Shown here: piece after piece, positions 1 through 61,068 of the stretch
How the letters are laid out: each line of letters starts with the position of its first letter
Position numbering within the stretch: position 1 is the first letter of the stretch
Assembly (NCBI GenBank): GCA_944391055.1
Contig: CALXSF010000005.1
Span: 28,922 to 92,921, forward strand
Source: an uncultured Kiritimatiellota bacterium
GTDB taxonomy: Bacteria; Verrucomicrobiota; Kiritimatiellia; RFP12; DVOR01
DNA length: 64,000 nucleotides
Direction of reading: 5' to 3'
Notes under the pieces: model-generated
Told to the model about the DNA's origin: nothing
Seen by the model: the letters and a program-made list of their open reading frames with translations, nothing else
Database searches by the model: none
Program-made: the position numbers and the translations under genes

Positions 1-126
1 TGGTGGGAGCGCATTGAGAACCTCTCCGAGAGCGTCGTCACCCGCGAGGGCATCCTGCGCGACCGCTCGATGACCCCCTTCGTGATGGCCGGCGACCAAT
101 ACTATGACCAGGTGAAGGCCAAGTAA
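1..126 (+). CDS. 3' end of an upstream gene (partial, product unknown); ends ...VMAGDQYYDQVKAK*
   Basis: Open frame from window start to TAA at 124-126. Directly precedes the pilM-like gene, so it may belong to the same pilus/secretion operon. No recognizable motif in the 41 aa visible. Confidence 0.35.
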   Translation, partial: WWERIENLSESVVTREGILRDRSMTPFVMAGDQYYDQVKAK

Positions 127-150
127 CCGCCCCAAGGCAAGAGACGCGCT

Positions 151-1836
151 ATGGAACGGATTCTGACACTCAATATTGGCGCCACGCGCCTGGCGCTGGC
201 CGAGTTCGAGGTGCGCCCTGGCCAAAGCCCAAGCCTCACGCGCCACACCTTCGGCGAGCTGCCCGATGGGGCCGCCGAGGCGCCCGAGACCTTCGGCGTC
301 GAGCTTGAGCAGGCCCTGCGCGGCATGATGGCCGCCTCCGGCATCCGCCCCGGGCGGATCCATGTGGCGCTCTCCGGGCAGATGGCCTTCCCGCGCTTCG
401 TCAAGGTCCTCGCCGAGGGCGAGGAGAAGATGCGCGAGCAGATCCGTTTCGAGGTCGAGCAGAACGTCCCCTTCCCGCTCTCCGAGGCCATTTGGGACGA
501 CGCCCTCGTCGGGGCGCCCAACGCCGGCGAGCAGCACGTCATGATCGTGGCCGCGCGCTCCGACCTCGTCGGCGCCATCGCCAAGGGGTTGCTCAACGCC
601 GGCTGCGAGCCCGAGCTCGTCGACGTGGCGCCCGTCGCCCTCTACAACGCCGTCCGCTTCAACTACCCCGAGGCCGAGGGCTGCACGCTGGTCGTCGACA
701 TCGGCGCGCGCTGCACCAACCTCGTCTTCGTCGAGCAGGATCGCATCTTCTACCGCACCATCCCCGTCGCCGGCAACACCATCACCGCCGAGGTCGCCAA
801 GACCTTCGGGCTCTCCCACGAGGAGGCCGAGCGCTTCAAGTGCGAGCAGGGCCTCGTGGCGCAGGGCGGCGCCTTCGCCGTCGACGACCCCGACGTGGAC
901 CGCCTCTCCAAGGTCATCCGCAACGTGATGACGCGCCTCAACGCCGAGGTCACCCGCTCCATCGCCTTCTACCGCAGCCAGCAGGAAGGCTCCGCGCCCA
1001 CGCGCGTCCTCCTCTCCGGCGCCTCCGCGCAGCTGCCCTACATGCAGAACTTCTTCGAGGAGAAGCTGCAGGTGGCGGCCGACTTCCTCAACCCCTTCCA
1101 GACGGTGTCGTACCCCTCGGACATCGACGCCGACCAGTTCGGGCGCGACGCCTTCTCCCTGCCCGTGCTCGTGGGGCTGGCGCTGCGCCGCGGCCTGACC
1201 TGCCCCGTGGAGATCAACCTGGTCTCCCAGGACATCACCGCCCGGAAGGAGTTCCGCCGCCGCCTCCCCTTCTTCGCCATCGCCGCCGCCGGGCTCGTCT
1301 TCATCATGGGCATCTGGCTGGTCTACGTCGGACGCATGGGCGCGCTCTATGAGCAGCAGGCCCAAAAGATCCAGGAGCGCATCACGGCCTACGAACAGCT
1401 GAAATCCGACTTCGACAAGGCCGACAAGGCCGCCGTCGCCGCCGAGGCCCGGGCCGCCGCCTACCGTGGGCTGCTCGAGGGCCGCCAGACGTGGATGCGC
1501 ATGCTCGTGGCCGTCAACAAGGCCATCCCGGACGGCCTCTGGGTCACCAGCCTCTCCGCGCGACGCTCGGGGACGGCGCTCCAAGGGCTCAACCTGTCGG
1601 TCTCCGTCTGGAAAGACCTCGAGGGCCGCCTCTCCGCCTCCGGCAAGACCATCGACGAGACGGTCGCCGCCAAGCTCACCCAGCAGGATGTCTTCGCCGC
1701 CGACGTCAAGGACATCCCCATCAGCAAGAAGACGCAGCTGCCGTGGATGACCTCGTTTGACATCACCGCCAACCTCCGGGCCGCCCAGACGCCGAAGGAG
1801 GCCAAAGGCAGCGCCGCCCGCCGCAGCAGGAGGTAA
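151..1836 (+). CDS. pilM: Type IV pilus assembly protein PilM fused to a PilN-like domain (actin-like ATPase domain + TM helix + coiled coil)
   Basis: 561-aa ORF. The N-terminus (ILTLNIGATRLALAEFEV...) resembles the PilM/FtsA actin-like fold. One TM helix (LPFFAIAAAGLVFIMGIWLVYVG) is followed by a coiled-coil periplasmic region typical of PilN. Sits in a cluster with a PilO-like gene and a secretin. Confidence 0.7.
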   Translation: MERILTLNIGATRLALAEFEVRPGQSPSLTRHTFGELPDGAAEAPETFGVELEQALRGMMAASGIRPGRIHVALSGQMAFPRFVKVLAEGEEKMREQIRFEVEQNVPFPLSEAIWDDALVGAPNAGEQHVMIVAARSDLVGAIAKGLLNAGCEPELVDVAPVALYNAVRFNYPEAEGCTLVVDIGARCTNLVFVEQDRIFYRTIPVAGNTITAEVAKTFGLSHEEAERFKCEQGLVAQGGAFAVDDPDVDRLSKVIRNVMTRLNAEVTRSIAFYRSQQEGSAPTRVLLSGASAQLPYMQNFFEEKLQVAADFLNPFQTVSYPSDIDADQFGRDAFSLPVLVGLALRRGLTCPVEINLVSQDITARKEFRRRLPFFAIAAAGLVFIMGIWLVYVGRMGALYEQQAQKIQERITAYEQLKSDFDKADKAAVAAEARAAAYRGLLEGRQTWMRMLVAVNKAIPDGLWVTSLSARRSGTALQGLNLSVSVWKDLEGRLSASGKTIDETVAAKLTQQDVFAADVKDIPISKKTQLPWMTSFDITANLRAAQTPKEAKGSAARRSRR

Positions 1837-1843
1837 CAGCAAG

Positions 1844-2908
1844 ATGGACCCCAAGCAAAAACTGATCGCCATCGCCGTCGGCTCCGTCTGCGGCCTCATC
1901 ATCCTGGCGCTGGCCGTGCTCCTCGTCCTCCAGATCGGGCACATGAACGAGGCGCGCGCGGCCCGCGACAACGCCGAGGCGACCATCAACAACTATTACG
2001 CCGCCAAGCCCTATCCCTCCGAAGACAACCGCGCCGTCCGCAAGCAGGACGAGACGGCCCGCGCCGGGTGGGCCGACAAGGCGCGGGCCGTGCTCACGCA
2101 TGGCCTCCAGGTGCCGCAGGGCGAGTCGCCCTCCCAGTTCGTCCAACGGATCGGCGACGCCGTCCGCGGCCTGAACGCCCGCCAAGAGACCGCCGTCGCC
2201 GCCGCCGGGCAGCAGCAGGTCATGGATTATTCCTTCGGCCGCTACGTCGTCCAAGGCGCCATCCCCAAGGACGCGGACGTCCCCCGCCTCGCCCAGCAGT
2301 TCGCCGTCGTTGAGCACGTCTGCGACCTGCTCTTGGACAATGGCGCGCGCGCCATCACCGCCGTCACCCGCGAGGAGTTCGACGCCGCCGCGGCCAAGCC
2401 CGAGGAGGAGGAGCCCCGCACGCGCCGCCGTCGCCGCCGCGCCGAGGAGGAGGAGCCCGCCGCCGCCGTGGGCGCCGCCATCGACCCCATCCTCGCCAAG
2501 GACGGCGTCCGGCGCGAATCCTACACCATCGCCTTCTCCGCGCCCTACGTCGCCATCGCAAAGACGCTCAACGCCCTTGCCGTCGACGACCTTTTCGTGG
2601 TGGTGACCGACCTGTCCGTGGACGCGACCTCCTCCGTCGCCGCCAGCGTCGACGAGTTGATCAAGAAGCGTCAGTCCGCCAAGAGCAACGCCGCCCGGCG
2701 CGCCGCCTCCTCCCGCGCCGCGGCGCAGAAACAGGCGGCCGCGCCCGCCTCGGAGACCTCGCTCTTCGAGGGCGCCTCCCCCGCCGAGCGCCTTGTCACG
2801 GATCCCGCGCACGCCGCGCCGCTGCGGGCCGTCCTGAGCTTTGACGTCTACTCCGCCGCGCCCGCTCAGGCCCCCGCCGCCCCGGCCGAAACGAAGAAAG
2901 GGAACTAA
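1844..2908 (+). CDS. PilO-like inner-membrane pilus/secretion assembly protein (single N-terminal TM helix, periplasmic domain, low-complexity tail)
   Basis: In-frame ATG at 1844 lies 8 nt after the pilMN stop, with an AGGAGG RBS at about 1829-1834. The N-terminal TM helix (IAIAVGSVCGLIILALAVLLVL) and its position between pilMN and the secretin fit PilO. The ORF-track start at 1757 overlaps pilMN and is unlikely. Confidence 0.5.
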   Translation: MDPKQKLIAIAVGSVCGLIILALAVLLVLQIGHMNEARAARDNAEATINNYYAAKPYPSEDNRAVRKQDETARAGWADKARAVLTHGLQVPQGESPSQFVQRIGDAVRGLNARQETAVAAAGQQQVMDYSFGRYVVQGAIPKDADVPRLAQQFAVVEHVCDLLLDNGARAITAVTREEFDAAAAKPEEEEPRTRRRRRRAEEEEPAAAVGAAIDPILAKDGVRRESYTIAFSAPYVAIAKTLNALAVDDLFVVVTDLSVDATSSVAASVDELIKKRQSAKSNAARRAASSRAAAQKQAAAPASETSLFEGASPAERLVTDPAHAAPLRAVLSFDVYSAAPAQAPAAPAETKKGN

Positions 2909-2911
2909 GCC

Positions 2912-4036
2912 ATGGCGAAAGACCTTCCTCCCATTCTGCGCCAATACGACCGCCTCACGGCCGTCGCCGTCCTCGCCATCCTGCTTGTCTCCCTCCTTTA
3001 CCTCATCCTCGCCGGCCTGCAGGAGCAGAAGCGGGTCGAGCGGTATGACGACGAGTTGAATCTGCGGATTCCCTCCGGCTCCCAGATCGCGGCCGCCAAA
3101 CTCGATCAGGACGAGGCGCTGCTCGCCGGGGTCGTCACGCCCGCCAAGACCGCGCTCCTCACCGTCCGCTCCGATGCCGAGGCCCCCAACCTCTTCACGC
3201 CCGCGCGGCGCCTCCTGTGCGTCAAATGCGTCCAGCCGATCCCGTGGCAGGCCGAGCGCTGCCCCTTCTGCAAGACCGAGCAACCCAAGGAGAAGACCAT
3301 CGACCTCTCCACGGTCGACACCGACGGCGACACCATGCCCGACCAGTGGGAGATCGCGCACAAACTGAACCCGCAGGACGCCAACGACGCTGACCTTGAC
3401 GCCGACGGCGACGGCTTCACCAACGTCGAGGAGTTCCAGGCCAAGACCGACCCCAACGACCCCAAGAGCCACCCCGGCTACGAGACCCGCATGACGCTCC
3501 AAGGCATCTCCGGCGAGAAGGTGCCCCTGCGCGCCGTCGGCAAGATGGAGCTGCCCTCCGTCCGCGACGCCGCCGGCAACCCCGTGCGCCAGTTCGAGAT
3601 CACGTTCGTCTCCGTCTCGCAGGACGGCAAGGAAGGCACCACCAGCCTGCGCACGAAGAACGGCGGCGAGATCGGCAAGTCCGGCTTCCGCTTCGTGCGC
3701 TACAACGAGCAGCCGACCAAGCGCATCGAGATCGGCCAGCACAAGCAGGTGCGCTTCATCAACGTCTCCACCATCGACATCGAGCGCATCTCGGACGGCA
3801 AGAAGATCCAACTCACCTTCAAGGATGAGAACAACCCCGCGTGGCCCGGCGACCCCCTGCTGGAGCAGAAGGCGGAGATTGCCATCGACCTGCCGGGCGT
3901 CGAGCCTGTCACCGTCGCCCCGGGCTCCACGTTCACCGTCAAGGGCGAGACCTACACCGTCCGCGGCGTCGACGCCGAGCAGAAATGCGTGCGCATCGAG
4001 AAAAATGCGGAGAAGAAGGTTTTTGAGTTGAAATAA
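2912..4036 (+). CDS. Membrane-anchored protein with a C4 zinc-ribbon and thrombospondin-type-3-like Ca-binding repeats, then a beta-rich C-terminal domain; candidate PilP-like secretin partner
   Basis: N-terminal TM helix (AVAVLAILLVSLLYLILAGL). CVKC...CPFC is a zinc-ribbon. DTDGDTMPDQWE and DADGDGFTNVEEF are TSP3/calcium-binding Asp-rich repeats. The gene sits immediately upstream of the secretin and is translationally coupled (3-nt gap after the previous gene). Confidence 0.5.
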   Translation: MAKDLPPILRQYDRLTAVAVLAILLVSLLYLILAGLQEQKRVERYDDELNLRIPSGSQIAAAKLDQDEALLAGVVTPAKTALLTVRSDAEAPNLFTPARRLLCVKCVQPIPWQAERCPFCKTEQPKEKTIDLSTVDTDGDTMPDQWEIAHKLNPQDANDADLDADGDGFTNVEEFQAKTDPNDPKSHPGYETRMTLQGISGEKVPLRAVGKMELPSVRDAAGNPVRQFEITFVSVSQDGKEGTTSLRTKNGGEIGKSGFRFVRYNEQPTKRIEIGQHKQVRFINVSTIDIERISDGKKIQLTFKDENNPAWPGDPLLEQKAEIAIDLPGVEPVTVAPGSTFTVKGETYTVRGVDAEQKCVRIEKNAEKKVFELK

Positions 4037-4092
4037 TCCACCCGTTGGGCTATACTCTCTTCACGATTTGGATACGGGCGAGACCCAAACTA

Positions 4093-7000
4093 ATGCGGAG
4101 AAAACGTGCTATGACACACTTTGTGCGCTTTGCCATGGTCGGCGTGATTGTCGCCGGGGCGTCTTGTTGCGCCCTCGCGCAACAGCAGGACGACGACCTC
4201 GACTCCCTCTTGGAGGGGTTGATCGAAGAGCCTGCCGCGCAGCCGGAAAAGCCGGCCGACAAAGAACCGGCCGCCGAGCCTGACAAACCCGCCGAACAAG
4301 TGGCCGACGAACCCGCCGGGAACCCCGCCGTCAAGCCGGCAGGGCAAGAGGCCGAGGTGGCCGTCGGGAACCCCGCCGTCAAGCCGGCGGGCCAAGAGGC
4401 CGACGCGCCCGCCGGGAATCCCGCCGTCAAGCCGGCGGGGCAGGAAGCCGTCGCGCCCGCCGTGGCCAAGGAGGAGCCCGCCGCCAAGGAGGAGCCCTCT
4501 GCGGACAAGGAAGAGCCCGCGGAGGAACCCGCCGAGGAGCCTGCGGTCGCCGAGGAGCCTGCCAAGGAACCCCAGGCTGAGCCGGCCGCCGAGCCCGCGG
4601 CCAAAGAGGACGGTCTTTTGGCCGATTTGGACGGCGACACCGCCGCTTTGGACGCGCTGACGGATGAGGATCGCGCCCTGAACGAGTTGGAAATGCTCAT
4701 CCGCCTCAAGAACCAGGGGCTGGACGTCCAAGCCACCGCCTGCCTCCGCAAGGCGCGTCAGCTGATGACCAAGGCTCCCGCCCCCGGGAAAGCCTTTGAG
4801 CAATATCAGGCGGCCATCAAGATGTACATGGACGCGAAGAAATATTTCCGCGAACATGAGGCCAACCTGCCGCTCAAGGCGGAGTGCGACGCCGGCATCC
4901 GCGAAGCCCGTTACCGTCAGGCGCTGACCCTCTTCCAGGACGACGAGTATGCCGAGGCGCTCGATCTCGCCCAGCAGGTGTTGCGCGAAGGCCATCCCCA
5001 GGCGGCGGCCTTGGTCGCCCAGATCCAGGAAGAGATGAATCGTCCGCCGGAGATCCGGCCCACGCCCGTCCTGCCCGAATACGCGCAGGAGGACTACCAG
5101 GCCTCCCGGCTGGCGGTCATGGAGCGCATCAAGCGGGCCACCGTCTATTACCACCTCGCCAAATACAAGGAGGCCAACGATCAGTTGGAGCTCGTGCTCC
5201 GCGACGATCCCAACAACGAGGCCGCCATCAGCCTCCGCGCCCGCATCAACCAGCGCAAGGATTCCCGGGATCGTCAGCTTCAGGCGTCCACCCATGACGC
5301 GATGATCGATGAGGTCTCCCTCAACTGGACCCCGCTCGGCGCCCTTGGCCGCGACTCCGAGGAGCTCTACGCGCCGACCGTCACCTCCGGGGCCAAGGCG
5401 CCCGTCGATGACGCGGGCCAGAAGGAGGCCCAGGCGGTCCTCGCCAAGCTCCAGTACATCCGCCTCCCCGAGTTCTCCATCCGTCCGCCGAGCACGCTCG
5501 CCGATGCGGTTCAGATGTTCGCCGAGATGTCTCGCGCCTATGACAAGCCCGAGCTCCCCCCCGAGGAAAAGGGCGTCTCCTTCGTGTTGAACATGGGCAC
5601 CAACAAGGCCGCCTCCGCCGAGGCGTCGGCCGAGGCCGACCCCTTCGCCACCGACAACACCGCCTCCTCCGGTGGGCTGCCGCCCATCCAGAACATCAAC
5701 CTGACCTACGTCACGCTCAAGGACGCGCTCGACATGGTCTGCGAGGTCACGGGCTCCAAATACATCATCCGCGGCAAGACCGTCGTCATCGTCCCCAATT
5801 CCTATGTCGAGGGCGAGATGGAGACGCGCACGTACAACGTCATGAGCGGGTTGCTCGAGAAGATCAGCGGCGTGCAGTCCGACCTTCAGGCGTCCTCGTC
5901 CTCCTCCGGGTTCGGTGACGGCAGCGACGACTGGGGGAGCATCGGCTCCGCCTCGCTCGAATCGCCCAGCGCCGGCACCACGCCCGAGATGCTCAAGAGT
6001 TTCTTCCAGGAATTGGGCGTGAACTTCGATGGCAATGCCCGAATCGCTTACCTCTCCTCCATCGGCAAGCTCCGCGTCACCAACACCCCCGAGAACCTCG
6101 CCCTGCTGGAGAGCCTGCTCGAGGAGCTCAACGTCACGCCCTATCAGATTGAGGTCGAGGCGCGCTTCGTCGAGGTCAGCCAAGAGGATCTCAACTCCCT
6201 CGGTTTCGAGTGGCAGCTGAACAGCGACATCGTGGGGACCGTCGGTTCCGGCATTGACTGGTCGTCCTCCCACATCCTGGGCAACCCGCAGGGCGGCAAC
6301 TCCGCCGGCGGCATCGGCGCGGGCGGTTACCATGTCTTCCGCAACACCTCTCTGGGCGGCACGGGCGACGCCAACGTCGCCATGCACGGCGGCTCCTTCA
6401 ACAATGGCATGCGCTTCCTTGGCGATGAGACCACCTATGCCAACCGCATCAACCTGAGCGACGCCACCCTCGCGCCCAACGACGAGTTCGCCTCCTTCTC
6501 CGCCGTCTTCGGCAAGATGGATATCACCATGATCCTCCACATGCTGGCCCAGCGCACCGACACGGACATGCTCTCCAGCCCGAAGGTGCTTGCCCGCCCC
6601 GGCCAGGAGGCCATGATCCGCGTCGTCACCGAATGGATTTATCCCACGGAGTTCGACGTCCAGGAACTCGAAGAGGCCGACAACAATTACGACGGCGACA
6701 ACTCCGTCATCGGCGGCGGCGGTGTGCAGGTTCAGGCCCCGCCCGTCAAGTTCGCCGTCGAGCCGCAGTCCTTCGAGAAGCAGGATGTCGGCGTCTCCCT
6801 CCAGGTCATCCCCGAGGTCTCCCAAGAGGGGCAGATGATCAACCTGCTTGTCAATCCCAAGGTCGTGGAATACCTCGGCGACTTCGAGTATGGCATGCAG
6901 GTGCCCTACATCCAGTACGGTATGACCGGCGGCGTCGTCACCTCCGCCTCCGTGGAATACTATCAGGTCTCCATGCCTCAGCCGATGTTCCACTTCCGTG

Positions 7001-7302
7001 AGATCAGCACCTACCTCTCCGTCTACAACGGCTCCACCGTTGTCATGGGCGGCTTGATCACGGAGACGCGGAACTCCTTCGAGGACAAGATCCCGATTTT
7101 GGGCGACCTCCCCTTCATCGGCTTCCTCTTCCGCTCCACGGGTGAGTACAGCGAGAAGCGCAACCTCCTGATCTTCCTCACCGCGCGTCTGGTCGATCCC
7201 GCGGGCCGTCCCCTCAAGACCGCCACCGACGGCCGCATGGGTTCCGCCGCGATGAACAACCAGTCCCCCGCCGAGACGATGGCCTCCGCCGTCCAGCAGT
7301 GA
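4093..7302 (+). CDS. pilQ: Secretin (PilQ/GspD family) outer-membrane channel with a long N-terminal acidic/Pro-Ala-rich repeat extension
   Basis: C-terminal secretin domain (GGLITETRNSFEDKIPILGDLPFIGFLFRSTGEYSEKRNLLIFLTARLVDP). Signal peptide (MTHFVRFAMVGVIVAGASCCALAQQ). The start is chosen downstream of a TATACT -10 at 4051-4056; the ATG at 4111 is an alternative. About 1070 aa. Confidence 0.8.
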   Translation: MRRKRAMTHFVRFAMVGVIVAGASCCALAQQQDDDLDSLLEGLIEEPAAQPEKPADKEPAAEPDKPAEQVADEPAGNPAVKPAGQEAEVAVGNPAVKPAGQEADAPAGNPAVKPAGQEAVAPAVAKEEPAAKEEPSADKEEPAEEPAEEPAVAEEPAKEPQAEPAAEPAAKEDGLLADLDGDTAALDALTDEDRALNELEMLIRLKNQGLDVQATACLRKARQLMTKAPAPGKAFEQYQAAIKMYMDAKKYFREHEANLPLKAECDAGIREARYRQALTLFQDDEYAEALDLAQQVLREGHPQAAALVAQIQEEMNRPPEIRPTPVLPEYAQEDYQASRLAVMERIKRATVYYHLAKYKEANDQLELVLRDDPNNEAAISLRARINQRKDSRDRQLQASTHDAMIDEVSLNWTPLGALGRDSEELYAPTVTSGAKAPVDDAGQKEAQAVLAKLQYIRLPEFSIRPPSTLADAVQMFAEMSRAYDKPELPPEEKGVSFVLNMGTNKAASAEASAEADPFATDNTASSGGLPPIQNINLTYVTLKDALDMVCEVTGSKYIIRGKTVVIVPNSYVEGEMETRTYNVMSGLLEKISGVQSDLQASSSSSGFGDGSDDWGSIGSASLESPSAGTTPEMLKSFFQELGVNFDGNARIAYLSSIGKLRVTNTPENLALLESLLEELNVTPYQIEVEARFVEVSQEDLNSLGFEWQLNSDIVGTVGSGIDWSSSHILGNPQGGNSAGGIGAGGYHVFRNTSLGGTGDANVAMHGGSFNNGMRFLGDETTYANRINLSDATLAPNDEFASFSAVFGKMDITMILHMLAQRTDTDMLSSPKVLARPGQEAMIRVVTEWIYPTEFDVQELEEADNNYDGDNSVIGGGGVQVQAPPVKFAVEPQSFEKQDVGVSLQVIPEVSQEGQMINLLVNPKVVEYLGDFEYGMQVPYIQYGMTGGVVTSASVEYYQVSMPQPMFHFREISTYLSVYNGSTVVMGGLITETRNSFEDKIPILGDLPFIGFLFRSTGEYSEKRNLLIFLTARLVDPAGRPLKTATDGRMGSAAMNNQSPAETMASAVQQ
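4315..4458 (+). repeat. In-frame 48-bp tandem repeat x3 inside the secretin N-terminal extension (AGNPAVKPAGQEA + 3 variable residues)
   Basis: Three near-identical copies of gggaaccccgccgtcaagccggc(a/g)gg(g/c)caagaggcc are visible by eye. They encode G-N-P-A-V-K-P-A-G-Q-E-A three times. Confidence 0.6.
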
Positions 7303-7320
7303 CGCAGATGGCTTCGGGAA

Positions 7321-7352
7321 AGCGGCCTCCGCAAGGAGGCCGCTTTTTCTTT
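7321..7352 (+). terminator. Rho-independent terminator after the secretin gene
   Basis: gcggcctccgcaaggaggccgc stem-loop followed by a tttttctttt T-run, 19 nt after the stop. Confidence 0.6.
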
Positions 7353-7794
7353 TGTCCCCGTTCTTATTCCCGTCAAGCCGCTCTTCCATCCCCGCCGTCT
7401 GCGTGGCCGGGTCGGTCTTGTGGAACGTTTGGAGGGCGTGTGCGTGGCGCGGCGGCCTGGGAGCCTGTTGCCTGCGTGGCGTCTGCCATGGCCTACTTCC
7501 CTTTATGTTCGCGTTTCTTTTTCCGTTGCTTCTGCTGTGCGTGTTCCTGCTTGCCGGGAGCCGTGCATTGAACGGTTTCTTGACGCGCGCGACAGGGTGC
7601 GTGCGCGCCACGCGCGGCAGGGCATCGTCATCAGGGAAAACAAAGACGGGACGACGACGGCCACGATGTTTTCCTCCGATAGCCTTCCCAATGCCTCCGT
7701 GTCTCGCCGTCCAACGGGTGGGAGACCTTCTGGGCGGCCTTCGTAAAATCGCGGTGCGGCACGCGCGGGGCGCGAGGCTTACGCCCCGATGGCG

Positions 7795-7815
7795 GCGTGT
7801 GGTACAATGAAAGCA
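7795..7815 (+). promoter_or_regulatory. Extended -10 promoter (TGtGGTACAAT) directly abutting the pdxA start codon; possible leaderless transcript
   Basis: gtgtggtacaatgaaagcATG. The -10 TACAAT at 7803-7808 is preceded by TGnG. Only 6-7 nt separate the -10 from the ATG at 7815. Confidence 0.4.
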
Positions 7816-8747
7816 TGAAACCTTTGGCTATCACGGGGGGGGACTGCGCGGGGATCGGGCCGGAGATCGCGGCCCGGGCGATGGCGGCGTTCCCGGACGA
7901 GCGGTTCGTGGTGTACACGGATCGGGCGCTGTTCGCGCGGGCGTGCGCGGCGGCGGGGGTGCCGCTGCCGCGCAACGCGGAGTGGCGCGAGGTGCCGGCG
8001 GTGGGCGACGCGGCGGCGGTCGTGCCGGGGCGGGAGCAGGCCCTGACGGGGCGCCTGGCGCATGATTGCGTGGCGGCGGCGGGGCGGGACGCCCTGGCGG
8101 GGCGGGTGCGGGGATTGGTGACGGCGCCGTTCAGCAAGGCGGCGCTGCGCTTGGCGGGCTTCGACGTGCCGGGGCACACGGAGCTGCTGGCGCGGCTCTG
8201 CGGGCGGGAGGAGGCCACGATGGCGTTCTTCGCGCCGGGGCTGGTGGTGGGGCTGGTGACGATCCATTGCGCGCTGCGGGAGGTGCCGGCGCTGGTCACG
8301 CCCGAGCGGCTCCTGCGCGCGCTGGGCGATCTGGCGGGGGCGCTGCGGCGGGCGTTGGGGCGGCGGCCGCGCATCGGGGTGCTGGCGCTGAACCCGCACG
8401 CGGGGGAGGGCGGGGCCTTCGGCGACGAGGAGGCGCGGGTCATCGCGCCGACCCTGCGCCGGGCGGCGGACTTGGCGGAGTTGGAGGGGCCGCTGGTGCC
8501 GGACACGGCCTTCGCCCCGGCGGCGCACCCGGAGCGCTTCGACGCCTTTTTGGCGATGTACCACGACCAGGGGCTGATTCCCTTCAAGCGGGCGGCCTTC
8601 GAGGAGGGCGTCAACGTCACCCTCGGGCTGCCGTTTGTGCGGACGAGCCCCGACCATGGCACGGCCTTCGCGCTGGCGTGGCAGGGGCGGGCCTCGGCGC
8701 GGAGCATGGAGGCGGCCATCCGCCGGGCGCGGGAGCTGACGCGATGA
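7815..8747 (+). CDS. pdxA: 4-hydroxythreonine-4-phosphate dehydrogenase PdxA
   Basis: N-terminal ITGGDCAGIGPEI and NPHAGEGG motifs are typical of the PdxA family. About 310 aa. The start is taken at MKPLAITGGD (second in-frame ATG) because the promoter sits immediately upstream. Confidence 0.8.
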   Translation: MKPLAITGGDCAGIGPEIAARAMAAFPDERFVVYTDRALFARACAAAGVPLPRNAEWREVPAVGDAAAVVPGREQALTGRLAHDCVAAAGRDALAGRVRGLVTAPFSKAALRLAGFDVPGHTELLARLCGREEATMAFFAPGLVVGLVTIHCALREVPALVTPERLLRALGDLAGALRRALGRRPRIGVLALNPHAGEGGAFGDEEARVIAPTLRRAADLAELEGPLVPDTAFAPAAHPERFDAFLAMYHDQGLIPFKRAAFEEGVNVTLGLPFVRTSPDHGTAFALAWQGRASARSMEAAIRRARELTR

Positions 8748-10014: not shown

Positions 10015-10431
10015 ATGGATCGCGCGGAAGAGAAGAAGCCCGAGGGCGTGCAGTACATCATCCATCCCACGCCGCCGGACGCGACGGGCCGCCGGAAGCT
10101 CTGCGCCCACGCCGTGGCGCGTAAGACCTACACGCGCAAGGAATTGGCGGAGTTCATCGCCTCGCGTACGCCGTTGCTGGACGCCGCGACGGTGATTTTC
10201 GTGCAGGAGGCCGTCCAAGACGCCATCAAGGTGCTGTTGAAGCGCGGCGACAGCGTGGCCTTCCAGAACCTCTTCACCCTCCAGCTCGCCATCTCCGGCA
10301 CCTTCGAGGAGGGCGAGGCGCCCGACCCGGCGAAGGGCAACGTGCTCAAGCCGCGCGTGCGCATCGCCCCGGCCTTCATCAAGGAGGTGAACGAGGGGAT
10401 CCGCTTCGTGCCCAAGGAGGAGGGGAAATGA
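10015..10431 (+). CDS. HU/IHF-like DNA-binding protein (Bacteroidetes-type histone-like family), 138 aa
   Basis: Strong RBS upstream. Sequence ...RRKLCAHAVARKTYTRKELAEFIASRTPLLDAATVIFVQEAVQDAIKVLLKRGDSVAFQNLF... resembles HU-fold histone-like proteins. Start chosen at MDRAEEKK over the upstream ORF-track start because of the promoter and RBS. Confidence 0.5.
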   Translation: MDRAEEKKPEGVQYIIHPTPPDATGRRKLCAHAVARKTYTRKELAEFIASRTPLLDAATVIFVQEAVQDAIKVLLKRGDSVAFQNLFTLQLAISGTFEEGEAPDPAKGNVLKPRVRIAPAFIKEVNEGIRFVPKEEGK

Positions 10432-11927
10432 GGCTCGGCGGGCTCGCGGCGGGCGCGTTGGCGCTGGCCGGGCTCGCGGGGTGCGCGCCTGGCCTGGGGG
10501 AGCGTGTGGAGGCGGCGCGGGAGTACGACGCCGGGAAGACGGCGGAGACGGAGGACTTCTTCCGCACAAACGCCGCGCCGCTGCGCCTCACGCAGTGCCG
10601 GGAGTGGGCGCGGGCGCGGACGCTGAAGCTGACGCAGGCGCGGCTGGACGCGCGGTTGGCGCGCATCCAGGGGACGGCGGCCTTCTCGGCCTTCCTGCCG
10701 CAGGTGGAGCTGACGTATGGGCGCTCGGGGACGGACAAGATCCTGCGCACGAACGTGGCGGCGCTGGGGCTGTCGCTCCAGATGCAGGACAAGTGGGTGA
10801 CGGAGTCGGCGCTGACGATCAGCCAGCCGGTTTTCGCCCCCAACGCCTGGCTGCTGTGGCTGGCGGCGCGCCGCGGGGCGCAGCTGCAGGCGCTGACGGT
10901 GGCGCGCAACGAGGAGATGCTCGACGTCCAGGTGGCCACCCTCTTCTATCAGGCCGCGGTGGCCGCGCGGACGGTCGAGGCCTATGAGGCCCAGGCGAAG
11001 GCCTCCGCCGAGCTGACGCGCCAGATTGAGGCGCTGACCCAGGAGGGGCTGGCGCTCCGGGGCGAGGAGGCGCGGGCGCGGGCCCTCCACGCGGGCGACG
11101 TCTACAACGCCCAGGTGGCGCGCGACAACGCCTTCGCCGCCAAGGCCAACCTGTTGGACCTGATGAACCTCCATCCGCTGGCCGAGGCGGCGCCGCCGGT
11201 GGACGGCGATTCGCTGCTGGAGGTGCGGGCGCTGCCGTGGGGCGTGGCGGACGCGGAGGGGAAGTGGGCGCCGCGCAGCCGGAAGGCCGCGCTGGGGACG
11301 CCCTTGGAGGAGTGGCTGTGGACGGCGTTGGTGGCGCGCAAGGAGATGTGGGCGGGCGACCTGACGATCGTCCTGCGCAGGGTGGAGGCGCTGGCCGCGC
11401 TGGCGCATTTCCTGCCCACGCTCTCGGTGGGCGGCGGCAAGGCCTATTCCGGCAGCGATTTCCTGACGCCGCACAGTTATCTGACGGGGGCGGTCGGCGG
11501 CGTGATGAGCGTCTTCGACGGGCTCCAGTCCATCGCCGACTACCAGGCCGCGCGGGCCAAGGAGGAGGCGGCCTACGCGCTGCGCGAGGACGCCGCGGCC
11601 ACCCTCATGGTCTCGGTCTGGCAGGCGTGGACGAATTGGCGCCAGGCGCGCGACCTGCGGGCCGTGGCCGCCGCCGCGCGCGAGGCCGCCGAGATCGACT
11701 ACGCGGAGACCAAGGCGCGCTACGAGAACGACCAGGAGACGCTCTCGGAGGTGCTCGACAAGTTCTCGGCGCTGGAGCGGGCGCGCATCGACGCGCTCGC
11801 CTCGGAGTACGCGGACGCGCTGGCGGAGTTCGTCTTCCGCGACACCATCGGCCTCGGCTGGGGGGCGGACGTGCCCCGCGACCCGGGGGCGCAACCTTTG
11901 CTCAGGGAAATGGAGGCAACGGAATGA
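10428..11927 (+). CDS. Outer-membrane efflux protein (TolC/OprM family lipoprotein)
   Basis: Lipoprotein signal (LALAGLAGC). Coiled-coil and beta-barrel repeat organisation. First gene of a three-gene efflux operon with overlapping start/stop codons. Confidence 0.75.
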   Translation: MRLGGLAAGALALAGLAGCAPGLGERVEAAREYDAGKTAETEDFFRTNAAPLRLTQCREWARARTLKLTQARLDARLARIQGTAAFSAFLPQVELTYGRSGTDKILRTNVAALGLSLQMQDKWVTESALTISQPVFAPNAWLLWLAARRGAQLQALTVARNEEMLDVQVATLFYQAAVAARTVEAYEAQAKASAELTRQIEALTQEGLALRGEEARARALHAGDVYNAQVARDNAFAAKANLLDLMNLHPLAEAAPPVDGDSLLEVRALPWGVADAEGKWAPRSRKAALGTPLEEWLWTALVARKEMWAGDLTIVLRRVEALAALAHFLPTLSVGGGKAYSGSDFLTPHSYLTGAVGGVMSVFDGLQSIADYQAARAKEEAAYALREDAAATLMVSVWQAWTNWRQARDLRAVAAAAREAAEIDYAETKARYENDQETLSEVLDKFSALERARIDALASEYADALAEFVFRDTIGLGWGADVPRDPGAQPLLREMEATE

Positions 11928-13057
11928 GGCGTTTGGTTTGGCTGTGCGCGGCGCTGGCCTTGGCCGGCTGCGCGAAGGAAGAGACGCAGGGGCAGGCGGA
12001 CAACCGCCCGCGCGTGAAGGTCTGCGCGCTGACCGGCGGCCTGACCTTCGAGGACTTCGCGACGGTGCAGGGGAGCGTGCGCACGAAGTTCACCGCCGCC
12101 GTGGCGTCGCGTCTGCCGGGGACGGTGGACGAGGTGCTGGCGGACGAGGGGGACGTGGTGAAGGCCGGCCAGCCGCTCTTCCAGGTCGACCGCGTGAACC
12201 TCGAGAACCAGGTGGCCATCGCGAAGGACGACCAGGCCGTCGCCGCCGCCGCGCGCGCCGAGGCCGTCGCCGCCCAGGCCGAGGCCGAGGCCGCCCACGC
12301 CAAGGCCCTCACCGACGCCGCGCGCTACAGGCGACTCTACGAGGAGAGCCGCTCCGTCACCAAGGACGCCTGGGAGCGGGCCGAGCTGCAGCTGCGCAGC
12401 GCCGCGGCGACCCTCGCCCGCGCCAAGGCCGCCGTGGCCACCGCCGACGCCAAGATCCTCCAGGCCGACACCGCCCTGCGCATCGCCGAGAAGAACCTGG
12501 CCGACTCGCGCGGGCTGGCGCCCTTCGACGGCATCGTCACCCAGAAGCTGCGCGACCGCGGCGACTTCGTGGACGCGGGCACGGCCATCTTCGCGCTCGA
12601 CGACCCGCGCGTCCGCGAGGTCTGCGTGACCCTGACGGCCGACCGGTACGCGGACGTGGCCGTCGGCAAGACCGAGATCGTGACCTCCTTCGGGCAGACG
12701 CTCCCCGTGACCTACAAGTCGCCGACGGTGGACCCCGCGACGCGCACCTTCGAGATCCGCGCCGTGATGCGGCCCGACCCCGCGGTGGCGCCGGGGATGC
12801 TTTGCGGCGCGCGGATCGTCTTCGCGCGGCGGACGGGCTTCGGCCTGCCGGCGGGCGCGGTGGCGCCGCGCGGCGGGCGCGAGGTGGCCTTCGCCGTGGA
12901 CGCGGAGGGGACGGTCGGGGCCATCGAGGCCAAGCGCGGCGCCACCGCCGGCGGCATGGTCGAGATCCTCAACCCCGAGGCCTTCGAGGGCGCGCAGGTG
13001 GTGGCCGAGGGGATGCTCCTGCTCAACCTGGGCGACCGCGTGAAGGCGGTGAGGTAA
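11924..13057 (+). CDS. RND efflux membrane fusion (periplasmic adaptor) protein, HlyD/AcrA family
   Basis: Lipoprotein signal (MRRLVWLCAALALAGC). Biotinyl/lipoyl-like hairpin (DEGDVVKAGQPLFQVD) and a long coiled coil. The ATG overlaps the OMF stop. The ORF-track start at 11237 is a frame extension. Confidence 0.8.
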   Translation: MRRLVWLCAALALAGCAKEETQGQADNRPRVKVCALTGGLTFEDFATVQGSVRTKFTAAVASRLPGTVDEVLADEGDVVKAGQPLFQVDRVNLENQVAIAKDDQAVAAAARAEAVAAQAEAEAAHAKALTDAARYRRLYEESRSVTKDAWERAELQLRSAAATLARAKAAVATADAKILQADTALRIAEKNLADSRGLAPFDGIVTQKLRDRGDFVDAGTAIFALDDPRVREVCVTLTADRYADVAVGKTEIVTSFGQTLPVTYKSPTVDPATRTFEIRAVMRPDPAVAPGMLCGARIVFARRTGFGLPAGAVAPRGGREVAFAVDAEGTVGAIEAKRGATAGGMVEILNPEAFEGAQVVAEGMLLLNLGDRVKAVR

Positions 13058-13085
13058 CCCGCCGGCGAAACGAAAGGAGGCGGCC

Positions 13086-16000
13086 ATGTTTCTTGCGGAC
13101 GCATCGGTCAAGCGGCCCATCGCGATGAGCGTGCTCATCATCATGCTCTCCTTCCTGGGCGTGATGTCGCTGCGCACGCTGGGCAACGACCTTCTGCCGA
13201 CGGTCGACGTCCCCTACGTCACCATCTCCGTGGTCTATTCCGGCGCCTCGCCCGACGAGCTGGAGACCTCCGTCACCCGCAAGATCGAGGACGCCATCTC
13301 GCAGGTCGAGGGCATCAAGCACATCTCCTCCACCTGCCTCAACAACTTCACCCAGGTGCTCATCGAGTTCGAGCTCGACCGCGACGTCGACGTCGCCGCC
13401 ACCGACGTCCGCGAGAAGGTTGACCTCATCCTCGACGAGCTCCCTGAGGACGCCGAGGCCCCCGAGATCCTCAAGTACGACATCAACGCCACCCCCGTCG
13501 TCACCCTCGCCCTCAAGGGCGACCTCCCCCTCGACGAGCTCTACGACTACGCCGACGACAAGCTGAGCGACCGCTTCTCCTCCCTCGCCGGCGTGGCCAG
13601 CGTGGACCTCATCGGCGGCATGGAGCGCGAGGTCATCGTGGAGGTCGACCGCGACAAGCTCGCCGGCCGTGGCCTGGCGATGGCCAACGTCGTCCAGGCC
13701 CTCGGCCAAGGCAACGTCAAGATCCCCATGGGCCAGATCGACGACGGCGCGCGCGAGATCTCCCTCACCTTCGACGGCGAGCCCGACGAGATCGAGGGCC
13801 TGGGCGACCTCCAGGTCGGCGTCTCCCAAGGCCGCCGCGTCTATCTGCGCGACGTCGCCACCTTCGCCTTCGGCACCGAGCGCAAGACCTCCCTCTCCTT
13901 CCACGACGGCGACCCCTGCGTGACCATGAAGGTCACCAAGAAGGGCGACGCCAACGGCACCCTCGTCGTCGCCGAGGTCGCGCGTGTCGTCGCCGAGCTC
14001 AAGGATTCCCTCCCCGGCGGCATGGAGCTGGTCTGGTTCCGCGACGACGGCACCTACATCAACGCCACCGTCTCCGACGGCTTCCTCTCCGTCTGGCAGG
14101 GCGTCCTCCTCACCGGCATCGTGCTGCTCATCTTCCTGGCGGACGTGCGGACGGCCTTCGCCGCCTTCGTCTCCATCCCCGTGACGATGCTCATCACCGC
14201 CGCCGCCTTCCCCCTCTTCGGCTACACCTTCAACATCATCACCATGTGCGCGGTCGGCATCTCGGTCGGCATCCTGGTGGCCAACTCCATCGTCGTGCTC
14301 GAGAACATCGGCCTGGAGTTCGCCAAGCGCAAGGGCACGCGCTACGCCATCGGCCCGGTCGTCGCCTCCGCCACCGGCTACGTCGCCCTCGCCGTCGCCG
14401 CCAGCGCGCTCACCAACATCGTCGTCTTCCTGCCCATCGCCACCATGTCCTCGCTGGCGGGCAAGTTTCTGGCCCCCTTTGCCGTGGTCGTCACCGTGGC
14501 CACCTTCGCCTCGCTGCTCATCTCCTTCACCCTCACGCCCATCCTGGCGATGGTCACCGTGCGCTGGGGCGAGCGCCGCCTCAACCCGGCCCTTGCCTGG
14601 TGCCTCCGCCCGTGGGATTGGTTCTACAAGCGCCTCGAGCGCGCCTACGTCCGCTCCGTCAAGCACGTCGCCCGCGCCCCGTGGGCTTTCCTGCTCGTCG
14701 CCGGCGGGCTCACCGTCGCCGGCTTCCTCTACTTTCCCAAGCAGGTCCAGATGGACTTCGTCCCCGAGATCGACCAAGGCGACGTCACCATCCGCCTGGA
14801 GTTCCCCGCCGACTACAACCTCGGCCGCACCGTCGCCCGCACCCGCGCCATCGCCGACAAGATCCGCGCCGCCGAGCCCGCCGTCACCCACACCAACATC
14901 AACTGCGGCAAGGTCCAGGGCCAGATGGGCACCGTCTCCGAGGGCCCCTACCTCGCCGAGGTCAACCTCCGCCTCACCCCCATGACCGAGCGCCCCGACG
15001 ACCCCATCGGCGCCATTCGCGCCCGCCTCCGCGCCCTTCTCCTCGAGGAGCCCGACTGCATCTACGCCGTCCTCATCCCCTCCGCCGCCGGCGGCGCCAG
15101 CCAGGACATCGCCCAATACGTCAAGGGCCCCGACCTTGGCGTCCTCGACCAGGCCGGCCTGCGCATGGCCCGGGCCTTCGCCGCCGACCCCGTCAACACC
15201 GACGTCGCCTCCTCCATCCGCCCTGGCCGCCCCGAGGTCCGCTTCCTCCCCGACCGCGCCGTCCTCCACGACCTCGGCCTCCCCGCCTCCACCCTCGGCC
15301 AAAGCCTCCGCGCCAACGTCGCCGGCCTCGAGCAGACCACCTACAAGCGCGGCGACCGCTCCTACGACATCCGCGCCCGCTACCGCCAGGTCGACGGCCA
15401 GGGCCAGCTCGCCGCCTTCGACCTCCCCGGCCCCGGCTCCCAGCCCTTCCCCATCGGCGCCGTCGCCGAGCTTCGCCCCGGCCTCCAGCCCACCATCATC
15501 AACCGCTACGACAAATCCCGCACCGTCATCCTCTACGCCAACGCCGCCCGCGGCTACGGCATGGGCACCGCCCTCGCCCACCAGGGCCGCGTCATCGCCG
15601 ACAACCTCCCCCCCGGCTGCTCCGCCACCGTCGGCGGCATGGCCGAGAAGATGAACGAGACCTTCGCCGAGTTCGCCACCGTCGTCTTCGTCGCCATCGT
15701 CCTCACCTACCTGCTCCTCTGCGCCATGATGGAATCCTGGACGCAGCCCTTCATCATCCTCCTCACCGTCCCCTTCTCCTACCTCGGGCTCTACATCGCC
15801 CTCTGGCTCACCCACGAAAGCCTCTCCATGTTCGGCCTCCTGGCCGGCGTCATGCTCGTGGGCGTCGTCGTCAACGCCGCCATCCTCCTCATCGACGAGG
15901 TCAACACCATCCGCCGCGCCGGCGCCGACGTCCTCCCCGCCGCCGCCCTCCTCCGCGCCGCCAAGCGCAAGTTCCGCCCCATCCTCATGACCTGCGTCGC

Positions 16001-16166
16001 CGCCCTCTTCGGCATGCTCCCCATGGCCACCGGCACCGGGCTGGGCTCCGAGCTGCGCGCCTCCATCGGCATCGGCTCGGTCGGCGGCATCATCCTCTCC
16101 TCCCTCATGGCCCTCTACTTCATCCCCGCGGCCTACCTGATCCTCGCCCGGCGCAGGGGGGCCTGA
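13086..16166 (+). CDS. RND-family efflux transporter permease (AcrB/HAE1-like), 1026 aa
   Basis: N-terminus MFLADASVKRPIAMSVLIIMLSFLGVMSLRTLGNDLLP, with 12-TM topology and two large periplasmic loops. Length and operon context are typical. Confidence 0.9.
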   Translation: MFLADASVKRPIAMSVLIIMLSFLGVMSLRTLGNDLLPTVDVPYVTISVVYSGASPDELETSVTRKIEDAISQVEGIKHISSTCLNNFTQVLIEFELDRDVDVAATDVREKVDLILDELPEDAEAPEILKYDINATPVVTLALKGDLPLDELYDYADDKLSDRFSSLAGVASVDLIGGMEREVIVEVDRDKLAGRGLAMANVVQALGQGNVKIPMGQIDDGAREISLTFDGEPDEIEGLGDLQVGVSQGRRVYLRDVATFAFGTERKTSLSFHDGDPCVTMKVTKKGDANGTLVVAEVARVVAELKDSLPGGMELVWFRDDGTYINATVSDGFLSVWQGVLLTGIVLLIFLADVRTAFAAFVSIPVTMLITAAAFPLFGYTFNIITMCAVGISVGILVANSIVVLENIGLEFAKRKGTRYAIGPVVASATGYVALAVAASALTNIVVFLPIATMSSLAGKFLAPFAVVVTVATFASLLISFTLTPILAMVTVRWGERRLNPALAWCLRPWDWFYKRLERAYVRSVKHVARAPWAFLLVAGGLTVAGFLYFPKQVQMDFVPEIDQGDVTIRLEFPADYNLGRTVARTRAIADKIRAAEPAVTHTNINCGKVQGQMGTVSEGPYLAEVNLRLTPMTERPDDPIGAIRARLRALLLEEPDCIYAVLIPSAAGGASQDIAQYVKGPDLGVLDQAGLRMARAFAADPVNTDVASSIRPGRPEVRFLPDRAVLHDLGLPASTLGQSLRANVAGLEQTTYKRGDRSYDIRARYRQVDGQGQLAAFDLPGPGSQPFPIGAVAELRPGLQPTIINRYDKSRTVILYANAARGYGMGTALAHQGRVIADNLPPGCSATVGGMAEKMNETFAEFATVVFVAIVLTYLLLCAMMESWTQPFIILLTVPFSYLGLYIALWLTHESLSMFGLLAGVMLVGVVVNAAILLIDEVNTIRRAGADVLPAAALLRAAKRKFRPILMTCVAALFGMLPMATGTGLGSELRASIGIGSVGGIILSSLMALYFIPAAYLILARRRGA

Positions 16167-59922: not shown

Positions 59923-61068
59923 ATGAGACGGTTCGCTTTGAGGCGCGGCTTCACGATGATCGAGCTCTTGGTCGTCGTCGTGATTCTTGGCGTGTTGGCG
60001 GCGGCGCTGATGCCGGCCGTCGGGAAGTTCCTTGACGCGGGCGAGGCGGCCACCTCCCGGAACAACCTGATGCGGCTGGGGCGCGCGGCGCTCACCTATC
60101 GCACGGACCATGGGAACTACTATCCCGCGGCGGGGGGCTATTTCACCGAGTTCACCCTTCAGGCCGAGGGCTCGCCCGAGCGGCGGTACGGCCGCGCGCG
60201 CGGGTGGGTCTACTTCGAGCACGACTGCCCGCGCTCGCGCGGCGACGTCGAGGCCAAGGACGAGATCGGCGACGGCAACCACCAGGCCGACGGCATGCTG
60301 GGCGGCACCGGCCGCAAGGACGAGAGCGGCAACCTCCAGGGCACCGAGGTGAACGAGGAGGGCTGCTGCCTCTGCTTCAACTCGCGCAGCTCGGAGGGCG
60401 GGCTCGGCGCGCGCCCCGCGAATTGGAAGGAGCGGGCCACGGACATGTGGTCGCAGGCGCAGACGGCCATCGTCAACGGCTGCCTCTATTCCTACGTGGG
60501 CGAGGATCTGGAGTGCTTCAAGAACCCCACCTTCGAGAAGCGCGCGCTGGAGAAGTTCGGCGTGGCCGCGCAGGACGTGGCCCGCGCCTACGCCATGAAC
60601 GTCATCACCGGCACGGACGACGACCTCTACGAGACCGACTGCTACAAGGACGGCGGTTACGAGAAGGCCTATTGCCACCCAAGCTCCGAGACCGCGCACT
60701 ACACCATCCGCCTCGGCTCCGCCGGCCTCCGCCCCCGCATCGACTCCGACGACACCAACAAGGGCGAGGCCATGCCCGCGAAGACCGCGCTCATCGTGGA
60801 GCTGGACCTCGACAACACGGCCCTCTCCTCCGACAACTCCCTGGAGGGCGACCAGGTGTGGGACTGGGACGAGGGCGACGAGAGCATGGGCTTCAACCAC
60901 GAGGACAACGGCGCGATGTTCGCGCACGTCTGCTTCGCCGACGGCCACGTGGAGACCATCCGAGACCCCTCCTCCGACCCCGAGAACCCGGACGACAACA
61001 AGCGGCGGGCGCTCTCCAAATGGTATGGCTCCGGCGGCCTGAACGCCTCCGGCGAAAAACTGGACTGA
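59923..61068 (+). CDS. Prepilin-type N-terminal cleavage/methylation-domain protein with DUF1559-like C-terminus (T2SS pseudopilin-like)
   Basis: RRGFTMIELLVVVVILGVLAAAL is a class III signal (G/FTxIELLVV). The C-terminal region ...NGAMFAHVCFADGHVETI resembles the H-x(n)-DGHV motif of PVC DUF1559 proteins. TATACT -10 at 59893-59898. Confidence 0.7.
   Translation: MRRFALRRGFTMIELLVVVVILGVLAAALMPAVGKFLDAGEAATSRNNLMRLGRAALTYRTDHGNYYPAAGGYFTEFTLQAEGSPERRYGRARGWVYFEHDCPRSRGDVEAKDEIGDGNHQADGMLGGTGRKDESGNLQGTEVNEEGCCLCFNSRSSEGGLGARPANWKERATDMWSQAQTAIVNGCLYSYVGEDLECFKNPTFEKRALEKFGVAAQDVARAYAMNVITGTDDDLYETDCYKDGGYEKAYCHPSSETAHYTIRLGSAGLRPRIDSDDTNKGEAMPAKTALIVELDLDNTALSSDNSLEGDQVWDWDEGDESMGFNHEDNGAMFAHVCFADGHVETIRDPSSDPENPDDNKRRALSKWYGSGGLNASGEKLD

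Follow-up and report, generated by a model that had tools for sequence, protein, structure and literature searches.

The locus analysed here lies in a stretch of 64,000 nucleotides (nt) from an uncultured Kiritimatiellota bacterium (GCA_944391055.1; contig CALXSF010000005.1, positions 28,922-92,921, forward strand), hereafter the window, and its products matched protein families named after the Amuc_1098 to Amuc_1102 genes of Akkermansia muciniphila. It comprises, at 151-7302, four open reading frames (ORFs) on the + strand, preceded by an incoming ORF that ends at position 126. The four genes had been predicted from the DNA letters as a co-directional, tightly coupled pilus or secretion module, and all of these ORFs were confirmed, with gaps of 24, 7, 3 and 74 nt in order, the first of them separating the incoming ORF from gene 1:

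1-126, + strand: fragment of gene 5, the last 41 codons and stop of an Amuc_1102-like gene
151-1836, + strand: gene 1, 561 amino acids (aa), PilM-PilN fusion, Amuc_1101 family
1844-2908, + strand: gene 2, 354 aa, Amuc_1100 family, PilO-like fold
2912-4036, + strand: gene 3, 374 aa, Amuc_1099 family, PilP/GspC-like
4111-7302, + strand: gene 4, 1063 aa, Amuc_1098-family secretin

Gene 1 encodes an actin-like, cytoplasmic PilM domain (residues 5-347; nt 163-1191), recognised by Pfam PilM_2 (6.9e-37), by TIGR01175 pilM (150.3 bits, above the cut-off of 133) and by a match of the same residues to Myxococcus PilM (PDB 3jc8; 2.9e-31). The rest of the polypeptide resembled PilN. Residues 353-483 matched the first 134 residues of Myxococcus PilN (3jc8_Na; 1.5e-3), Pfam PilN gave a weak match below its cut-off (residues 451-513; E = 0.004; 17.6 bits, cut-off 22.8), and two features sit at the positions expected for PilN, namely an INL motif (residue 355) and one membrane helix (residues 375-393; nt 1273-1329), the PilN-like periplasmic part reaching approximately residue 513 (nt 1689). 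The INL motif recalls the INLLP peptide by which PilN binds PilM. Together, the TIGR01175 score, the two 3jc8 matches, the motif and the position of the helix support the fusion of the original prediction, here of PilM to a PilN-like part. The fusion is family-wide, as a PilM-like protein with a membrane-spanning C-terminal part, approximately 530-630 aa long, was encoded in almost all loci compared (see below). At the family level, protein 1 matched the NCBIfam Amuc_1101_fam model with 434.5 bits (7.9e-130), below its cut-off of 650.

For the product of gene 2, the prior prediction of a PilO-like transmembrane protein was supported by the modelled structure. The AlphaFold2 model (mean predicted local distance difference test score, pLDDT, of 77) showed an N-terminal membrane helix (residues 10-28) and long helices, followed by a two-fold alpha-beta-beta core. 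In the Foldseek search, crystal structures of Amuc_1100 (6kny, 6lad and 6laf) filled the top ten places (E = 5e-6 to 2e-4; target TM-score up to 0.79), and the next match was PilO of Pseudomonas aeruginosa (2rjz; probability 0.99). Sequence searches of the PDB with protein 2, alone and as a profile, gave no significant match. The NCBIfam Amuc_1100_fam model was matched with 52.7 bits (4e-14; cut-off 180), and precomputed Pfam matches to PF28028 Amuc_1100 were found for protein 2 and for all 50 homologues. The core is interrupted by a highly charged disordered loop, PEEEEPRTRRRRRRAEEEEP, at residues 180-209 (nt 2381-2470; pLDDT below 50).

Protein 3 was the only product to exceed the strict NCBIfam cut-off of its Amuc family, that of NF042425 Amuc_1099_fam ('Amuc_1099 family pilus-like system protein'; 81.9 bits, curated cut-off 50), and a homologue from a Kiritimatiellia genome, 59% identical to it, already carries this name at NCBI. 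The original prediction had taken its combination of a zinc-ribbon-like motif and thrombospondin type 3 (TSP3) repeats for an architecture not yet described; the module to which it belongs is not an undescribed one. Both elements are present in this membrane-anchored protein, as shown by the conservation of the CVKC...CPFC motif and by a Pfam TSP3_bac match of 31.3 bits (cut-off 25). In the structural model (mean pLDDT 82.9), a long helix at the N-terminus is followed by two short hairpins, which coincide with the cysteine motif; the TSP3 region forms short helices, and an all-beta half comes last. The predicted fold matched GspC-HR and PilP, with DotF at rank 6, another PilP chain at rank 7 and GspB at rank 8. 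Foldseek found nothing with the protein 3 model, and PDB sequence searches with the protein, alone and as a profile, gave no significant match. As both Foldseek and the sequence profiles were blank, the link to PilP/GspC is structural and moderate in strength. The protein is anchored by a membrane helix, its only one, and not by a lipid as PilP is.

In the four-cysteine (Cys4) motif (C-x2-C-x10-C-P-x-C; residues 103-120), each of the four cysteines reached 90% conservation or more across 33 aligned homologues, down to 22% identity, and at least 4 cysteines just before the first TSP3 loop were present in 45 of the 53 synteny-supported family members. Members with 0-1 cysteines, which matched the NCBIfam model end to end (272-327 bits), came from genomes labelled Akkermansiaceae, Prosthecobacter and Roseibacillus, and it is on these genomes that a core family without cysteines rests. 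Since such members match the whole model and protein 3 is matched over residues 126-360 only, the Cys4 motif and a second calcium-type loop were either added to the core family or lost from it. No published description of either element was found. As the motif follows the only membrane helix, it should be periplasmic, judging by its place in the sequence.

What the cysteines do is less evident. They may bind no zinc at all and instead form two disulfides that stiffen a small periplasmic knuckle, a reading to which we give somewhat less than even odds. The motif lies on the same side of the membrane as the HR-like module, which can only meet the secretin in the periplasm, and the periplasm is oxidising in many bacteria. 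Moreover, no zinc-ribbon Pfam model was significant on protein 3, the best being a RING-type model (E = 0.013). Against disulfides, zinc ribbons typically show the CxxC-x10-CPxC spacing and a pair of short hairpins like that predicted at residues 100-111, the C4 zinc-ribbon ribosomal protein L40e was weakly matched, and the organisms are reported from anoxic gut samples, where the periplasm may be less oxidising. The size of the family could not be estimated from a profile search with the protein 3 alignment across 1.84 billion representative proteins, as its 51,299 matches were swamped by giant proteins with many TSP3 repeats, which made up almost all of the top 150.

The secretin encoded by gene 4 begins with a signal peptide (residues 1-24), and three further parts were delimited in it:

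4183-4680, + strand: acidic Ala/Glu/Pro-rich linker, to approximately residue 190, defined by composition
4741-5304, + strand: TPR-like helical part, from weak Pfam TPR matches
6544-7197, + strand: channel (Secretin) domain, Pfam Secretin 1.3e-29

A canonical channel preceded by an acidic extension and a TPR-like part had thus been correctly anticipated; the length of approximately 1070 aa had not, the protein having 1063. The C-terminal part matched PDB secretins (down to 1.4e-17), and the NCBIfam Amuc_1098_fam model gave 409.8 bits (2.1e-122; cut-off 750). Among the general secretin models, GspD scored highest (137 bits), followed by MshL (118) and PilQ (107), the GspD cut-off of 351 not being reached. 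No AMIN domain was detected in the secretin by Pfam, and the acidic linker and TPR-like segment occupy that position. As the Amuc_1098 model covers the protein from ORF residue 233 onward, the TPR-like part is common to the family, and the idea that a large TPR-bearing secretin is peculiar to this locus had to be given up.

The incoming ORF was completed with a public assembly. The window proved identical to ENA ERZ28614994 scaffold_103 (166,750 bp; hereafter L001), with no mismatch over the 11,836 nt compared, and L001 adds 9,850 bp upstream. The full gene lies at 9164-9976 of L001, upstream of the window edge. The product, 270 aa long, carries an ordinary signal peptide of the Sec type and had a precomputed match to Pfam PF28178 Amuc_1102, a weak match to NCBIfam Amuc_1102_rel (22.4 bits; cut-off 55) and no significant match in a PDB sequence search. 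The fragment at 1-126, for which a pilin, peptidase or ATPase gene had been suggested, is therefore the end of an Amuc_1102-like gene, Amuc_1102 itself having been likened in the literature to an archaeal type IV pilin.

Genes for the remaining parts of a pilus or secretion machine were searched for throughout the window. No Walker A motif of PilB/PilT type, and none of GspE type, was found in any of the six frames of the 64 kb; no GspE, GspF or pseudopilin genes adjoin the module or occur anywhere in the 64 kb, and no pilB, pilC, pilD or pilT is nearby. The expectation that no ATPase or pilin gene lies inside the module agrees with these results. The only prepilin-type N-terminus in the 64 kb, RRGFTMIELLVVVVILGVL, belongs to an ORF at 59929-61068 (+ strand; near 59,947; Pfam N_methyl 5.1e-7), 52 kb from the cluster. 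Proteins of N_methyl type are numerous in this bacterial group, and a link of this ORF to the cluster is not implied.

The distribution of the cluster was investigated by scanning one genome per species with the protein 3 alignment and comparing the five products with the ORFs of the returned loci (phmmer). The order Amuc_1102-like gene, PilMN, Amuc_1100-like gene, Amuc_1099-like gene, secretin recurred in approximately 45 species-level genomes, with loci labelled Kiritimatiellia, Lentisphaerae, Opitutia, Chthoniobacterales, Udaeobacter, Akkermansiaceae, Prosthecobacter, Roseibacillus and Pontiella. Protein 3, for which an absence of secretin association in other genomes would have spoken against its place in the module, lay directly upstream of the secretin in nearly every locus that was long enough. 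Some bin labels looked inconsistent with the content of the bins (L012, L049 and L008-L009, with labels 'Akkermansia sp.', 'Alistipes onderdonkii' and 'Lentisphaeraceae'), and labels alone are unfit to infer distribution. In the genome scan, the locus under the label A. muciniphila (L081) proved to be an unrelated TSP3 protein of 1237 aa. The PilM-like protein was found with every residue unchanged on 16 public metagenome contigs, L001 among them. Names on close homologues of the products include Kiritimatiellia, Kiritimatiellae and Candidatus Spyradenecus, and the few named entries among the 120 best matches listed in the PilM search were labelled Kiritimatiellia or its relatives. The closest relatives were metagenome-assembled genomes from rumen and from horse, goat, sheep and buffalo gut. 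NCBI already names Kiritimatiellia homologues 'Amuc_1099 family' and 'Amuc_1100 family'.

Taken together, the locus is very probably the Kiritimatiellia orthologue of the Akkermansia Amuc_1102-1101-1100-1099-1098 pili-like cluster, in effect a diverged pilM-N-O-P-Q operon. The A. muciniphila cluster has been described as pili-like and strongly enriched in the envelope fraction (PMC5332112), and, in another account, as a type IV pilus cluster whose PilQ is Amuc_1098 (PMC10688800). Amuc_1099-1102 have also been placed in the mucin utilisation locus MUL2, in a passage of an ISME J paper of 2026 that cites Davey 2023 (PMC13174399). The same paper describes Amuc_1101 as a PilM protein, likens Amuc_1102 to an archaeal type IV pilin, calls Amuc_1099 and Amuc_1100 'uncharacterized', and reads MUL2 as serving attachment (PMC13174399). 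The likeness of the present locus to the A. muciniphila cluster was established through NCBIfam and Pfam family models, Amuc_1100 structures and related genomes, not through type-strain sequences. The five genes, their order and their orientation agree between the two, and the best or only specific match of each product is to the corresponding Amuc family of NCBIfam or Pfam. The superposition of the protein 2 model on the Amuc_1100 crystal structures, the PilM-like fusion and the TPR-like part ahead of the secretin channel are likewise shared. The differences lie in sequence distance, in the Cys4 motif and second calcium loop that the Amuc_1099 homologue carries and that proteins labelled Akkermansiaceae, Prosthecobacter and Roseibacillus, matched end to end by the family model, lack, and in an extra acidic linker of approximately 170 aa in the secretin. 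Because four of the five products fell under the strict equivalog cut-offs, the locus was filed as a diverged orthologue and not as an equivalent.

Compared with the PilMNOPQ proteins of type IVa pili (Pseudomonas, Myxococcus, Neisseria), the locus has the same gene order, a PilM domain above the TIGR01175 cut-off, a C-terminal secretin channel, and PilN-, PilO- and PilP-like parts recognisable by sequence or predicted fold. In contrast to these systems, PilM and PilN form one polypeptide; the PilP-like protein is helix-anchored with added Cys4 and TSP3 modules, whereas PilP is a lipoprotein; and the secretin carries the acidic linker and TPR-like part instead of the AMIN domains of PilQ. Furthermore, the fibre candidate, namely the Amuc_1102-like protein, has a Sec and not a prepilin signal, and the genes pilB, pilC, pilD and pilT do not accompany the cluster.

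The layout is as close to GspL/M/C/D of the type II secretion system as to PilMNOPQ, given the fused L-like and helix-anchored C-like proteins. The module might be regarded as the envelope scaffold of a type II secretion-like system (GspL/M/C/D equivalents) that exports, for example, glycan-degrading enzymes and builds no pilus. The domains of the fused PilM-PilN protein are laid out as in GspL, a membrane helix anchors the third protein as it does GspC, in contrast to the lipid anchor of PilP, and GspD was the top general model for the secretin. We nevertheless consider this alternative unlikely: its GspD score is far under the family cut-off, the third protein has no PDZ domain or coiled-coil after the HR-like module as GspC does, and no gspE, gspF or pseudopilin operon is present at the locus. 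Pfam, NCBIfam and PDB profile searches gave no sequence-level match to the GspL, GspM or GspC families, and the cluster always travels with the Amuc_1102-like gene, pilin-like according to the literature.

Under the interpretation as a diverged Amuc_1102-1098 cluster, a plausible arrangement of the machine can be proposed from the predicted topology, in which each of the three middle proteins has a single membrane helix and the secretin and the Amuc_1102-like protein have signal peptides. The cytoplasmic PilM domain would be tethered to the inner membrane through the covalently joined PilN-like part, which would cross it once and pair in the periplasm with the PilO-like Amuc_1100 homologue. 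Protein 3, anchored in the inner membrane, would span the periplasm through the four-cysteine knuckle and the two calcium-type loops, which may act as a stiffened spacer, and its HR-like beta module would dock on the secretin's periplasmic N-domains, in the manner of GspC with GspD and of PilP with PilQ. The secretin would form the outer-membrane channel, probably expressed from its own promoter, and the Amuc_1102-like protein, Sec-exported and not a classical prepilin, would be the fibre or a surface component. An ATPase, a platform protein and a peptidase, if needed, would be encoded elsewhere. By analogy with Akkermansia, the role of the system is likely surface attachment together with the capture or uptake of host or dietary glycans.

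Several points weigh against this interpretation. The family scores (434 versus 650, 52.7 versus 180, 410 versus 750 and 22 versus 55 bits) are those of distant relatives, the contact between protein 3 and the secretin is one that we infer from a predicted fold, and the proposed function is carried over from Akkermansia by analogy, a role in mucin or glycan use and abundance in the envelope being on record for A. muciniphila only. In addition, neither an ATPase nor a platform protein nor a prepilin peptidase is encoded in the window and a prepilin signal is absent from the Amuc_1102-like protein, so that the assembly of a fibre, and its route, would be conjectural. A pilus, secretion or glycan uptake are all possible, the sequence giving neither direction nor cargo.

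The last of these was also considered as an inward-directed machine that would take up large glycans or glycoproteins, much as has been proposed for Akkermansia and mucin, with the secretin as entry pore and no long pilus. The placement of Amuc_1099-1102 in MUL2, as given in the passage citing Davey 2023 (ISME J 2026), agrees with it, as do the gut origin of the closest relatives and the lack of an ATPase or classical pilin in the cluster. However, the same paper reads MUL2 as attachment, nothing in the sequence indicates a direction of transport, and no glycoside hydrolase or sulfatase gene occurred among the flanking genes examined (rhamnose-nucleotide synthesis, pdxA, methyltransferase-like, HU-like and efflux pump genes). 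This inward-directed reading is judged rather doubtful, if less so than a type II secretion-like exporter.

At the nucleotide level, gene starts and operon signals were inspected. Gene 2 was assigned to ATG 1844, which has AGGAGG 8 nt upstream and was also picked by the gene callers of public assemblies, in preference to TTG 1757. The secretin was assigned to ATG 4111, with its conserved MTHFVRF opening, and the starts at TTG 4045 and ATG 4090 were rejected; in two orthologues the ORF begins right at the MTHFVRF methionine. The following elements were located around and within the secretin gene:

4028-4056, + strand: promoter-like site TTGAAA-N17-TATACT, from a consensus scan, just upstream of the secretin gene
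4057-4110, + strand: conserved leader following the promoter-like site
4297-4462, + strand: tandem repeat, 48-bp unit in 3.5 copies (Tandem Repeats Finder; 85% matches, score 241)
7316-7349, + strand: strong intrinsic terminator, 15-bp stem with 9 G-C pairs followed by a T run, closing the operon

Both hexamers of the promoter-like site and much of the 74-nt gap, including most of the leader, were invariant in six orthologous loci whose third proteins were 57-83% identical. Because the final codons of gene 3 run into the first hexamer, conservation without coding constraint is limited to the second hexamer and the leader. This unusual conservation of the gap suggests that the secretin gene may have its own promoter and a conserved 5' leader. 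The terminator begins 14 nt past the secretin stop, and the next gene, pdxA, starts approximately 460 nt further on. An Rfam scan of positions 1-8000 returned nothing credible. Two long antisense ORFs on the minus strand (1763-3811 and 4090-7611) are the expected product of a sequence with approximately 68% G+C.

The 48-bp repeats, originally counted as three, encode units close to GNPAVKPAGQEAxAPA within the acidic linker. In relatives whose third protein is 83% identical, the repeats were absent and the linkers were 51-60 residues shorter, and many other loci had 100-380 acidic or proline-rich residues at this position, where start codons are uncertain. The pattern suits a disordered spacer that would change by repeat gain and loss. 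This linker, a feature of the present branch, might perhaps also tether the channel to the envelope or to a matrix, as originally proposed. Just after the predicted cleavage site, a Q-D-D-D-L-D-x-L-L-x-x-L motif (residues 25-40; nt 4183-4230) was present in all ten orthologous secretins inspected, and the linker that follows it was not conserved. A lipoprotein secretin was judged unlikely by inspection, since AGAS-C, the sequence up to the cysteine, makes a poor lipobox and is followed by a signal peptidase I site (ALA-Q). In some relatives labelled Lentisphaerae or Chthoniobacterales (L051, L053 and L067), two tandem secretin genes follow the Amuc_1099-like gene.

Directly upstream of the Amuc_1102-like gene, positions 5108-9065 of L001 encode a Wzy_C O-antigen-ligase-like membrane protein (583 aa), RmlA, RmlC and a 256-aa protein with no family match. 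This four-gene arrangement was also present in three relatives (L005-L007; third protein 83% identical). By analogy with pilin O-glycosylases, the fibre protein could be a substrate for glycosylation by the Wzy_C protein. Downstream, within a few kb of the cluster, the region 10428-16166 (+ strand) contains a gene for an outer-membrane efflux protein (Pfam OEP), followed by two large ORFs (to approximately 13057, and 13086-16166), which appear unrelated to the cluster.

NCBIfam and Pfam already model these families; the locus belongs, as a distant member, to a system already catalogued and is not a new kind, and the connection to Akkermansia largely removes the novelty hoped for at the outset. 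Modest novelty appears to lie in reading Amuc_1099 explicitly as PilP/GspC, in the conserved Cys4 module and in the breadth of the cluster beyond Verrucomicrobia-labelled genomes. A more far-reaching proposal can be formulated, for which the chances seem slim: in the branch with Kiritimatiellia, Lentisphaerae and Opitutia labels, the PilP/GspC-like connector would have gained a zinc-ribbon-like knuckle in the periplasm and a second calcium loop, and the secretin a long acidic linker, giving a metal-dependent strut with its length tuned to the periplasm, and the cluster would be a GspL/M/C/D-like glycan machine that has no dedicated ATPase and is common to the Planctomycetes-Verrucomicrobia-Chlamydiae (PVC) group. 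If true, this would represent a variant of the secretin-docking connector not yet described.

Amuc_1100 and its neighbours are under intensive study owing to the health effects of Akkermansia. The locus and its relatives offer a coherent reading of this cluster as a diverged pilMNOPQ-type scaffold, in which Amuc_1101 corresponds to PilM plus PilN, Amuc_1100 to PilO, Amuc_1099 to PilP/GspC and Amuc_1098 to the secretin, and to which the conserved Cys4 motif makes a small, testable addition. The extension of the cluster beyond Verrucomicrobia-labelled genomes to Kiritimatiellia and Lentisphaerae aids both annotation and the design of experiments.

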